Source: Schmidtea polychroa
Taxonomy: Eukaryota
Assembly: GCA_044892525.1 (NCBI GenBank)
Contig: CM097885.1
Span: 145,452,001-145,516,000, forward strand
Length of the DNA stretch: 64,000 bases
Direction of reading: 5' to 3'
The translations under genes and the position numbers were made by a program. The notes under the pieces are model-generated. The model saw only the letters and a list, made by a program, of their open reading frames with translations, did no database searches and was not told the DNA's origin. The stretch's first letter is position 1. Each line of letters starts with the position of its first letter. This document shows, piece by piece, positions 13,488-16,358 of the stretch.

Positions 13488-16358
13488 GAAATCCTCGACA
13501 ATACTACGGAAACCGAAACGGATGAACAATTCAAGAAACAAAAAGAACCGACAAGAATAACCCCAGAAGGGCAAACCGATAAAATAATAGATGAATGGAA
13601 TGAGTGGTTGAGAAATAACGATAGTTCATTACCCAGAACGGATAACGAAAGAAATCCGCACTACGAAAATACCAGAGAAGCTGGAACGATGATGGAAAAA
13701 CGAGCAAAAGGAAGACCTAAGAAACAAGGAGAGAAGCCCGAGTTCAAAACCAAGGAACAACTAAAGCAAGAACAAGGACAAGTTCGATTAGAAAAATTAG
13801 ACAAAATAGTATGGGAGCTAAAGGAAGCCCAACCAACGATCGAAAGAGGAGAAAAATGGATACGAGAATTGATCAAAGATATGTTAATAATAACAAACCC
13901 ACAACTTAGACGTTTGTGGCAACGGAAAGTAGCAAGTGTGGAAGCTAGACAATTATGGCACATCGTGTCAGGGATAATTCCAAAGTTAATCAAAGAGAAA
14001 ACGAAAACCACCAAAACGGATTGGGATGAAACGAGGAGAGTGATTAAACAGCTCACGACAAATGCAAACGATGACGAACATCATCTAGTGGTAATCACTT
14101 ATTTGATGTATAATTTGATAGGATTAGCTGCGAGAAAAATACCCAATAAACAATTTGCAAACTACGTAGAAATGACAGTGGCAATCATAGAGAATACTAT
14201 TGAACCACATATTATCCATGCCGGAGGATGGAAAAGACTCATACAAGCACCACGAAAAAATGAACAAGAAAGGTCGATGCAAGTTAGATTGAAAAAGCTA
14301 TTGAATGAGCTGGAATGGGAACTACCGATGAAAGACCCAGCAAGCAGAAAAGCGTCAATAAATTCGCTAATGATGACCATGATGATATGGATGTTGTGCA
14401 CAAGTGGATCAACGGGTTTTACCATCTACGATTGCGATAATATGGTAATGAGAGATAAATACTCATTGAGAGATATAGAAGAATGCAGACAAGCATCACC
14501 CAACAAATTGGACATAGTAAAAACAAAAGTCACCTATCATGTATATCAAGAATCAGATTTCATCAGAACGCAAGCAAGGGAATGCGTAGTATCAAAAAAG
14601 GTACTCGCATATTATTGTGGACAATATTCGTATTCGACCCTCATACTACCCGGATTGGATAAAGAAATCGTACAAATACAAAGAGAAGACTGTAAAGAGC
14701 TATTTAGAACCGGAGCGATGAAAATGAATAACGGAGTTACAATACACGGACAAACCGGAATGATTAAAACCGAAAGTGTTTATGTATCCGGAAAAGTAAA
14801 ATCATCAGATGGATCATGTAACGGAGGTACGTATACAATCCGAGGAGAGGTAATATCAGGAGTAGTAGTGATCGAGTCCTATACGGTTGAATTAAAAGAA
14901 TACGAAGCACAATTTGACGCCAATAATTATCAAATGAAGACCAACCCAGCATGTAGAGCTACGGAAAACGTATGCAAGACAGGAGTATCAACCATAATCT
15001 ATGAAGCTAATACCCAGAAATGCCGACTCCAACTGTTAAAAAGTGCTTTGTTTAATGAAGTAAAAGGAGAAATTTATGAGAACGAAAATGACGAGGATGG
15101 AAACGAAAGAGTGAGAATGCGAAATGGAAAACCAATACCACCATCTCCCAGAGAAAAAAGGCTCTCAACGCAGAAAACACCAACGGCACTAATCACCGAC
15201 GATCCAGATCTGGGTATGAGATTTATCAAAGAGAAAGAAACCACCAAATGCGACAATATAGTATACAAAACCAACTACGCTGGTATCTACATGTCGAGAC
15301 AAATAATAGATAGGGCAGTAGGAAAGATAGCAACGGAGGACGTGAAGCTATACCTATACGCCAATAATAAAATGGACTTTCTATTTCATCGTGGACAAAC
15401 GACCTTACAAAAAGTATATTACGATCTTATACAAAACGATTGTTCATTGAATAAAGAAATACTGAAAACAAAGCTGGCTATTGCGATAACGCACCCAGAT
15501 AACACGATGCCATCACTCCCTCTACCAGATGGACATTTTGGTAGAATGGTAGGAGAAGTAATGTACACATACCAATGTACCAAGACGTATGCACGAATGC
15601 CAGAAAAATCCACACTACCCGAAAAGAAATGTGCAAATGAATTAGAAATTCGTTATAAAGGACAAAACCGATTCGTCCAACCAGTCACTAGAATTATGAA
15701 TCCAGTGGGTTTCTACCCAAATCTCTTCAACTGTTCGAATGCGTACGGACCATTGTATGAAAGACCGGATGGAAAATGGGTAATGTTACCAGTAAAATCC
15801 GTAACCGAGGAACCCAAGAAGTTTGGATTAATAGAACTCGCCACAGAGCAAGATTTCAAACCTATAGACGTGTCAAACGGTGGTATGTATTCGCCAGAAG
15901 ATTTAGAAACAGCTCGGCTTAACGTATTATTCCCAGCAAGGCGAGAATCTATTTTGTCAAATATGGTGACAATAACTGGGGGAACGAATTATCAATCAGG
16001 TCCCAATTACGAGCTACTATTATCACCAGACCATTTTCAACAAGCAACATCAAATATGATGAAAGCGATGTGGGGAAGATTCTTGGTTTTCGGACAAATG
16101 ATGGCCGGAATATTAGGGATCATACTCATTATCCAAATTGTCAGAGTAATACTAACACAAATGCTAGCTTGTTTTGATATATACAAGCGGGAAAAGAAAG
16201 TTAACTGGAAAATGATAGTAGGCTTCCTACCATTTCTAGCTAAAACCATGGTGTTACATGGTCACTCAAAGGACATTCACCAAATAAAGCGATTGATTAA
16301 AATCCTAACAAAGATTAAAGGAACCGACGAGGAAGTAGCAGACGATTCCGGAAAGTAA
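13488..16358 (+). CDS. env: Bcl-2-like domain fused to an Env-like class III fusion glycoprotein (chuvirus G-like)
   Basis: BH2-like TIEPHIIHAGGWKRL after two amphipathic helices (about 13845-14250). Hydrophobic signal-like SLMMTMMIWMLCTSGSTG, then a Cys-patterned ectodomain (FTIYDC..YSLRDIEEC..RECVV..YYCGQYS..DCKELFRTG..GSCNGG) and a C-terminal TM FLVFGQMMAGILGIILIIQIVRVIL. Confidence 0.75.
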   Translation, partial: EILDNTTETETDEQFKKQKEPTRITPEGQTDKIIDEWNEWLRNNDSSLPRTDNERNPHYENTREAGTMMEKRAKGRPKKQGEKPEFKTKEQLKQEQGQVRLEKLDKIVWELKEAQPTIERGEKWIRELIKDMLIITNPQLRRLWQRKVASVEARQLWHIVSGIIPKLIKEKTKTTKTDWDETRRVIKQLTTNANDDEHHLVVITYLMYNLIGLAARKIPNKQFANYVEMTVAIIENTIEPHIIHAGGWKRLIQAPRKNEQERSMQVRLKKLLNELEWELPMKDPASRKASINSLMMTMMIWMLCTSGSTGFTIYDCDNMVMRDKYSLRDIEECRQASPNKLDIVKTKVTYHVYQESDFIRTQARECVVSKKVLAYYCGQYSYSTLILPGLDKEIVQIQREDCKELFRTGAMKMNNGVTIHGQTGMIKTESVYVSGKVKSSDGSCNGGTYTIRGEVISGVVVIESYTVELKEYEAQFDANNYQMKTNPACRATENVCKTGVSTIIYEANTQKCRLQLLKSALFNEVKGEIYENENDEDGNERVRMRNGKPIPPSPREKRLSTQKTPTALITDDPDLGMRFIKEKETTKCDNIVYKTNYAGIYMSRQIIDRAVGKIATEDVKLYLYANNKMDFLFHRGQTTLQKVYYDLIQNDCSLNKEILKTKLAIAITHPDNTMPSLPLPDGHFGRMVGEVMYTYQCTKTYARMPEKSTLPEKKCANELEIRYKGQNRFVQPVTRIMNPVGFYPNLFNCSNAYGPLYERPDGKWVMLPVKSVTEEPKKFGLIELATEQDFKPIDVSNGGMYSPEDLETARLNVLFPARRESILSNMVTITGGTNYQSGPNYELLLSPDHFQQATSNMMKAMWGRFLVFGQMMAGILGIILIIQIVRVILTQMLACFDIYKREKKVNWKMIVGFLPFLAKTMVLHGHSKDIHQIKRLIKILTKIKGTDEEVADDSGK

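Follow-up and report, generated by a model that had tools for sequence, protein, structure and literature searches.

A predicted internal signal helix between a Bcl-2-like domain and the envelope glycoprotein of a Burro-type retrotransposon in Schmidtea polychroa

Introduction

How could a retroelement deliver its envelope glycoprotein (Env) into the endoplasmic reticulum (ER) when env lies in frame between gag and pol, and what would become of the domain just ahead of the point of entry? This question is raised by a 64,000-nucleotide stretch of the Schmidtea polychroa genome (assembly GCA_044892525.1, contig CM097885.1, positions 145,452,001 to 145,516,000, forward strand; here called the window), which contains a copy of a giant Burro-type retrotransposon. 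An original prediction, made from the letters of this stretch, had placed a Bcl-2-like domain ahead of Env and proposed that the hydrophobic helix between them may double as tail anchor and signal peptide. The reading that we favor, with a probability of about 0.62, is that the region is part of a Gag-Bcl-2-like-Env-Pol polyprotein, in which the helix would thread Env into the ER and be cut, with the Bcl-2-like product held in the ER membrane at least transiently. Data are presented here for the single frame in young copies, Bcl-2 homology over helices 4-8, an n/h/c signal pattern, a match to signal peptides and purifying selection.

Results

A single frame in young copies of the element

The element in the window is of a known kind, a giant Ty3/gypsy retrotransposon of 30 kb. 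Such Burro elements were reportedly described by Jurka in 2007 and by Grohme in 2018. The assignment to the Burro type is by architecture as described in PMC6431247. A total of 978 candidate loci for the element were detected in its own genome. The best 150 of these were scored and exhibited 91-100% identity, and a single open frame of 4,732 codons was present in 59 of the 150 (counted by hand) and in all five copies that were fetched. In young copies, Gag, the Bcl-2-like domain, Env and Pol all lay within this one frame. The fetched copies had a length of 30.3 kb and long terminal repeats (LTRs) of 4.07-4.16 kb that were 99.5-100% identical, and TG...CA termini and 4-bp target duplications were read in three of the five.

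The window copy was decayed, with ~90% identity to young copies. It has lost sequence near 12245 and near 22412, its frame shifts and is broken by stops, and it cannot itself make the polyprotein. Its open reading frame (ORF) at 13488-16358 (+), of 956 amino acids (aa), is a fragment whose start at 13488 is a product of decay, because the frame directly follows an in-frame stop.

13485..13487, + strand: in-frame stop of the decayed window copy (reading-frame listing)

Signal features of the helix before Env

The same cassette of Bcl-2-like domain, signal and Env was found in five LTR families of this genome, designated W (the family of the window), V, X, Y and Z. Family V is a nested sister of W and was 48% identical to it over the cassette part. 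The junction with Env comprised the following features in the window.

14241..14345, + strand: linker from BH2 to the signal, of differing length between families (GGW to hydrophobic run, 20-56 aa in 17 rows)
14346..14417, + strand: internal signal-like segment, equivalent in position to the N-terminal signal peptide of 17 stand-alone glycoproteins and kept in five families
14346-14363, + strand: n-region of this signal, basic
14364-14399, + strand: h-region of this signal, Met-rich and hydrophobic
14400-14417, + strand: c-region of this signal, with small residues; STG ends at 14417
14417/14418, + strand: predicted signal-peptidase cut, from homology with stand-alone glycoproteins
14418..16097, + strand: Env ectodomain, a chuvirus-like/gB-type glycoprotein of 560 aa with 14 Cys (PF24664, E 1e-72)
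16098..16154, + strand: Env transmembrane (TM) anchor, the strongest hydrophobic segment of the ORF and the predicted return of the chain to the cytosol before the protease

A profile search detected 278 relatives, and the best 150 were examined; 120 of these carried an xxxYDC motif, and the other 30 lacked YDC or were fragments. In 17 full-length stand-alone glycoproteins, a classical signal peptide preceded the YDC motif, which lay 17-46 aa from the Met, and a small residue occupied the -1 place (four before YDC) in 14 of the 17. Among 31 internal cases, 26 had the small residue and 28 had an h-region, and the corresponding numbers for 69 other scorable matches were 56 and 55, compared with background rates of 27% and 6%. 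From this homologous place in stand-alone glycoproteins, a cut after STG is likely, as had been proposed, and as a prediction that position is well supported.

Within the 17 rows that bear Bcl-2, a small residue was present at -1 in 15, basic residues preceded the helix in 15, and the distance from the start of the h-region to the cut was 16-23 aa in 16. The helix was kept in 30/30 loci of family W, with ATG at the -3 to -1 places in 29 loci and STG in the window. The three-part n/h/c pattern was kept in all five element families and also in relatives without Bcl-2. The helix had been described as the only hydrophobic run, some 40 aa on, before the ectodomain. The distance held, as the run starts ~43 aa after GGWKRL, but the run is not the sole one, since the central helix at 14088-14138 is also hydrophobic; the 13-mer insertion-scale sums in a young copy were 1.6 for this Bcl-2 helix 5 and -0.15 for the signal. 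Overall, these comparisons indicated that the helix is very probably the internal signal of Env, with a predicted cut after STG.

Four membrane segments each were predicted in families W, X and Y: the signal, the anchor of Env and, beyond the integrase, a second signal-like/TM pair. This number is even, and Pol is therefore predicted to stay cytosolic. By sequence, the element was assigned to the GAG-ENV-POL elements, with a Ty3/gypsy pol and a chuvirus-like glycoprotein between gag and pol.

At the end of the polyprotein of these three families, the second signal-like helix and the TM segment enclosed 220-330 aa that are predicted to be lumenal. This second lumenal region was located at L033:1130-2155 (+), at the L111-L112 junction and at L124:4413-5552 (-), and it was deleted in the window near 22412. 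It gave no notable Pfam match and no usable ESM Atlas match, and pairwise comparisons detected no similarity between the regions of W and X or of W and Y. It contains what we take, by eye, to be fibronectin-III-like motifs.

The Bcl-2-like domain

The domain ahead of the linker was resolved into the following parts.

13854..14240, + strand: Bcl-2-like domain, N-terminal edge approximate (PF00452, PDB profile, AlphaFold2 [AF2], Foldseek)
14055..14087, + strand: BH1-equivalent loop, degenerate and without NWGR (alignment of 20 rows)
14088..14138, + strand: predicted central hydrophobic helix 5 (alignment, profile, AF2 model)
14154..14240, + strand: predicted helix 6 and BH2-like GGW motif (GGW nearly invariant)

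Matches to PF00452 were below the curated cut-off of 31.4 bits when the window sequence was used alone (E 0.0014-0.017, 16-20 bits), while some family X copies exceeded it (32.2-33.3 bits). PF00452 was the only family matched by all seven of seven aligned members, from four element families. With a profile of these 7 rows, PDB matches to Bcl-2/Bcl-xL had E-values of 3e-4 to 7e-4, on a par with an unrelated ribosomal S8 in the top row. A 22-row profile, built without any canonical Bcl-2, detected 88 sequences at E<=1e-3 (best, 1.8e-6), of which the best 60 were all Bcl-xL/Bcl-2, and ribosomal S8 did not appear among the matches listed. Queries with less information gave little: phmmer with the window domain against PDB returned 1 row, which was unrelated, two word-index protein searches gave nothing at E<=0.001, and the ESM Atlas gave no usable match for the domain.

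An AF2 model based on the 22-row alignment had a mean predicted local distance difference test score (pLDDT) of 58.7 overall and of 76-85 for residues 81-150, the C-terminal half. The model from the single sequence had a pLDDT of 50.7, and the rows listed by its wide fold search were all generic helical repeats. With the alignment-based model, 36/36 rows listed by Foldseek belonged to the Bcl-2 family (E 0.03-0.14), as did 11 of the best 50 rows of a wide fold search (Z 8.3-8.4), including 6wgz_B (Z 8.4, root mean square deviation of 3.6 over 104 aa). In a viral fold search, an adintovirus Bcl2 ranked second (E 0.061), and nothing was found at E<=0.001.

Several results tempered this picture. 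The Foldseek search gave no match at E 0.001 or better, the N-terminal half of the model had a pLDDT under 60 and its helices were also poorly conserved, and in the wide search Bcl-2 structures only tied with designed helical repeats (Z 9.4). In the AlphaFold/Foldseek check suggested with the original prediction, a helical bundle around a central hydrophobic hairpin was supported for helices 4-8 and uncertain for the N-terminal half. The BH1 Trp was present in 0/20 rows and the Gly in 1/20, in agreement with the prediction that NWGR is not conserved; at the place of the BH1 Arg, a basic residue was found in 14/20 rows and was absent in family W. BH2 was kept, with GGW nearly invariant across aligned rows. 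Loss of BH1 lowers the case for a canonical pro-survival member, not that for a Bcl-2-like domain. The two peptides on which the prediction was based are present in the + frame 13488-16358, at 14079-14138 and 14154-14240, and their mapping to Bcl-2 helices 5-6 and BH2 is supported by profile homology and a medium-confidence model. Homology and modeling together support a domain that is Bcl-2-like over helices 4-8. The domain may have an anti-apoptotic role or a working BH3 groove; co-folding with a host Bok-like BH3 segment gave a score of 0.02, but the alignment was not used and this result counts neither way.

Small, multicopy stand-alone Bcl-2-like genes with a hydrophobic tail of their own, some with a mini-intron, were observed at L066-L071, L073-L080, L121-L123 and L128. 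They adjoin ORFs for an A32-type ATPase, TBP and endonuclease VII and are Polinton-like in setting. With the retroelement Bcl-2 profile, L062 scored 34 bits, L073-L078 scored 21-23 and other Bcl-2 loci scored 18 or less, and a shared origin of the retroelement genes and the Polinton-like stand-alone genes is possible on sequence grounds. Seven near-identical Bcl-2 exons were present within 0.9 Mb on contig C4 (L051-L057). A BH3 exon was not found in Bak-like host loci.

Selection across the frame

Ratios of nonsynonymous to synonymous substitution (dN/dS) between the window and a young copy were 0.10 for helix 5-BH2, 0.03 for the signal and 0.06 for the Env N terminus. Between subfamilies of family X, the values were 0.13, 0.11, 0.04 and 0.19 for helix 5-BH2, signal, Env and spacer, respectively. 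Two observations count against a specific importance of the Bcl-2-like part: selection was equally strong on the upstream spacer of the window copy (dN/dS, 0.056), and one pair in family Y had a dN/dS of 1.33 over helix 5-BH2 (9 nonsynonymous and 2 synonymous changes). Constraint is spread over the entire frame, with no emphasis on Bcl-2.

The helix as a possible anchor

The favored model would proceed as follows. The helix at 14346-14417 would insert via the signal recognition particle and Sec61 and thread Env into the ER; signal peptidase would cut after STG, leaving the Bcl-2-like product in the ER membrane at least transiently; and the Env anchor would bring the chain back to the cytosol, where protease and reverse transcriptase (RT) would remain. 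The anchor would be in the ER rather than in mitochondria, given that basic residues are found ahead of the helix and are few behind it. Insertion of tail-anchored proteins is classically posttranslational, and here it would be cotranslational. Until the element's protease cuts, the helix would anchor a Gag-...-Bcl-2-like precursor. A recurrent motif was found at domain borders and was kept in family V, and the nearest good sites lay upstream of the ubiquitin-like domain and the spacer. Cleavage at those sites would free from Gag an anchored product of some 400-570 aa that includes a long charged spacer and is more than a bare Bcl-2, with a likely pro-survival or signaling role at the ER.

12711..12722, + strand: candidate element-protease site, the closest well-conserved site on the upstream side of the Bcl-2-like domain, with a border-type motif kept in sister family V

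The flavivirus anchored capsid has the same arrangement. In hepatitis C virus (HCV), the cytosolic core protein has at its end the signal of E1, the envelope protein that follows, and is left ER-anchored via that signal after signal-peptidase cleavage, according to a passage of PMC5402940. The Bcl-2-like product would likewise be anchored at least transiently because the topology places it ahead of the helix. These viral proteins are unrelated to those of the element, in which ~1,600 residues of a retroelement polyprotein precede the signal and the domain next to it is Bcl-2-like.

Tail anchoring by the helix is plausible by this analogy, but a lasting role of this kind for the Bcl-2-like product is doubtful for several reasons. 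The h-region is short for a lasting anchor, with an uncharged run of 11-19 aa compared with about 17-22 aa for the single C-terminal TM helix of a tail-anchored protein, and lies 20-56 aa behind BH2. The same passage of PMC5402940 indicates that signal peptide peptidase (SPP) then frees HCV core from the membrane. Single-frame relatives without detectable Bcl-2 keep the helix, and its conservation is therefore explained by Env alone; the helix is first of all Env's signal. In a 36-row tree of Env, 16 Envs embedded in polyproteins grouped together (bootstrap 91, SH-aLRT 96; not starred), and three Bcl-2-less rows nested with a Bcl-2 bearer at 100/96. The Bcl-2 label required 3 changes on this tree, in which four of the eight labels belonged to members of the profile itself and from which one family-X row and all matches with under 450 aa of Env were omitted.

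Alternative explanations

The strongest version of the anchoring idea is that, in a clade of endogenous retrovirus-like elements of animals, one helix is both the signal of Env and a lasting ER anchor of a working anti-apoptotic Bcl-2, in the style of flaviviruses and HCV and with four membrane segments. It is unlikely by our estimate; if it were true, one survival protein would be produced for every Env, and the distal end of the polyprotein would set free a further lumenal protein not described before. With the same topology, the anchor could instead be a disposable stub that is trimmed by SPP or by the element's protease, with a soluble Bcl-2-like protein as the acting form, like mature HCV core. 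This possibility, which we hold tentatively and at less than even odds, overlaps with the favored reading, as the latter already allows a transient anchor. In its favor, the short h-region contains helix-breaking small residues, SPP acts on HCV core (PMC5402940) and on some ER tail-anchored proteins (as stated in a passage of PMC4068138), and in families W and V a loose protease-site-like motif borders the helix on its cytosolic side. As a protease site, however, that helix edge was not supported, ranking 548 of 4,726 positions with a matrix from six domain borders, and the loose motif occurred in 3/22 polyprotein-type relatives compared with about 10% expected. A different use of the domain is also conceivable, and is a substantial possibility short of even odds, namely that it keeps the Bcl-2 fold but not the BH3 groove and serves as a scaffold in immune or stress signaling with the TRAF-like and ankyrin proteins of the element. 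Several poxviral Bcl-2-fold proteins act as signaling scaffolds. The degenerate BH1 and weak N-terminal helices, together with RING-TRAF/MATH and ankyrin domains in the same element, would fit such a role, against which stand the nearly invariant GGW of BH2, the basic residue at the BH1 Arg place in most rows and a report, as cited in a passage of PMC13465017, that an IAP-like (inhibitor of apoptosis) region of Burro1 shields stem cells from apoptosis, which indicates that elements of this kind do act on cell death.

The two remaining explanations concern how Env acquires its signal. Env might come mainly from a spliced or internally started RNA, with the helix as an ordinary N-terminal signal peptide that never anchors Bcl-2. 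In Drosophila gypsy, env RNA is as a rule spliced, and a Met lies about 30 aa ahead of the cut in families W and V and in most copies of X. Nevertheless, the frame was continuous and under selection across the junction, 4/17 Bcl-2-bearing rows had no in-frame Met that leaves the h-region whole, no T-rich splice acceptor was found before the helix, and synonymous sites of the linker varied freely (dS, 0.70). Moreover, translation of Pol, which follows Env without a change of frame, requires that the entire frame be read through the helix. When contigs of 4 runs were compared with a young copy, none of the best 15 of 41 joints led into env, a result that is uninformative on splicing. An internal start or splice for Env is disfavored by these observations, and the explanation as a whole is improbable. 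Still less probable, to the point of being remote, is an uncleaved signal-anchor, which would give Env two anchors and keep it attached to the Bcl-2-like domain. For some gB-type errantiviruses, an ectodomain with a TM segment on either side is predicted (a passage of PMC13524379), but the small residues at -1/-3 were kept as in stand-alone signals (26/31 versus 14/17; background, 27%).

Other features of the element and the window

The remaining parts of the element were located in the window as follows.

10960..12009, + strand: Gag (capsid, three CCHC knuckles), 5' end cut by a nested element (Pfam and copy comparison)
13035..13139, + strand: ubiquitin-like domain, weak (PF00240, E 0.012 in the window and 0.00019 in family Y)
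16319..20287, + strand: protease, RT, RNase H and integrase, interrupted in the window copy (Pfam and copy comparison)
20236..22416, + strand: ankyrin-repeat part of the polyprotein (Pfam), with the last ~330 aa, including the second signal/TM pair, deleted in the window copy
22986..24422, + strand: accessory RING and TRAF/MATH ORF, separate, 478 aa (Pfam)
27363..41426, + strand: 3' LTR remnants, split by a Polinton-like insertion at 29824-40024

The integrase was located after RNase H by Pfam. No Pfam match to a BIR domain was obtained in the scanned ORFs, which covered part of the element, and an upstream RING ORF was present. No tRNA genes were found in the window.

A sister element of family V was nested head to head in the gag of the window copy (window 1-10959 [-], and locus L136); it had 34-73% protein identity to the window family, and its Bcl-2-like domain and signal lay just outside the window. 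The Polinton-like element in the 3' LTR had 980-nt inverted repeats and ORFs for a protein-primed polymerase B, endonuclease VII and RING. More LTR fragments akin to the LTR of the nested element were seen at 43161-43760, 44561-44791, 48798-49044, 54833-55610 and 60103-60810. An ORF of 250-260 aa with no assigned function lay inside the LTR in young copies (window 40186-40941; L031:3819-4598). The cassette was not confined to giant Burro elements: families X (L111-L113) and Y (L124-L127) had lengths of 13.4 kb and 17.5 kb, both with LTRs of 1.06-1.07 kb, and family Z was located at L116-L117. A tandem pair of aspartic-protease domains was observed in several relatives (P0005, P0006, P0007, P0010 and P0046). 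P0015 was a complete gypsy polyprotein with a bacterial source label, probably via contamination.

Discussion

The feature analyzed here is real and mostly known, and a topology model has been added to it. Burro/GYPSM1 elements of dugesiid planarians have a BCL2-like motif and an in-frame env between BCL2 and protease, as described in a section of PMC6431247, so that the Bcl-2-like domain and its position before env are already published. The published elements and the one examined here share a size of about 30 kb, long LTRs, MATH/TRAF and one huge ORF with the order Gag (three CCHC)-ubiquitin-like-BCL2-env-PR-RT-RH-IN-ankyrin; the present element has 4,732 codons where the published ORF1 has 4,873, carries MATH/TRAF in an accessory ORF further downstream and gave no BIR match in the ORFs scanned. 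That section of PMC6431247 does not discuss signal cleavage, membrane topology or the second signal/TM pair. We found nothing in the literature on cleavage or anchoring at the Bcl-2-Env junction, although Grohme 2018, Lee 2026 (Dev Cell, Burro1) or supplements may cover it. What is newly added is the placement of the helix at the position of the N-terminal signal peptide of stand-alone homologous glycoproteins, which puts the likely cut after STG.

Errantiviruses of the gB type with the order GAG-ENV-POL have been reported from Nematoda, Bryozoa and Platyhelminthes in a passage of PMC13524379. They share the gene order and Env class of the present element, and their ectodomain is flanked by a signal plus a TM segment or by two TM segments. 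The words "Bcl," "Burro" and "apoptosis" do not occur in its main text, and its LTR filter left out elements with over 14 kb between LTRs. Compared with the Bcl-2 family (PF00452), the domain described here has the same helix 5-6 hairpin, BH2 GGW and C-terminal hydrophobic helix behind BH2, but it lacks NWGR, lies in a polyprotein and has a linker of 20-56 aa instead of 12 in a canonical relative, and its C-terminal helix is followed by an ectodomain and not by a short basic tail.

The model would explain how Env enters the ER while capsid and enzymes stay cytosolic, despite env being in frame between gag and pol, a question that the published description does not answer, and it names one residue as the mature start of Env. 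Expression of BURRO1 RNA has been shown (PMC8532177). Activity of the Bcl-2-like product at the ER, if it exists, would give these elements a second anti-death function in addition to the reported Burro1 IAP, made in a one-to-one ratio with the envelope, in animals that need surviving stem cells to regenerate.

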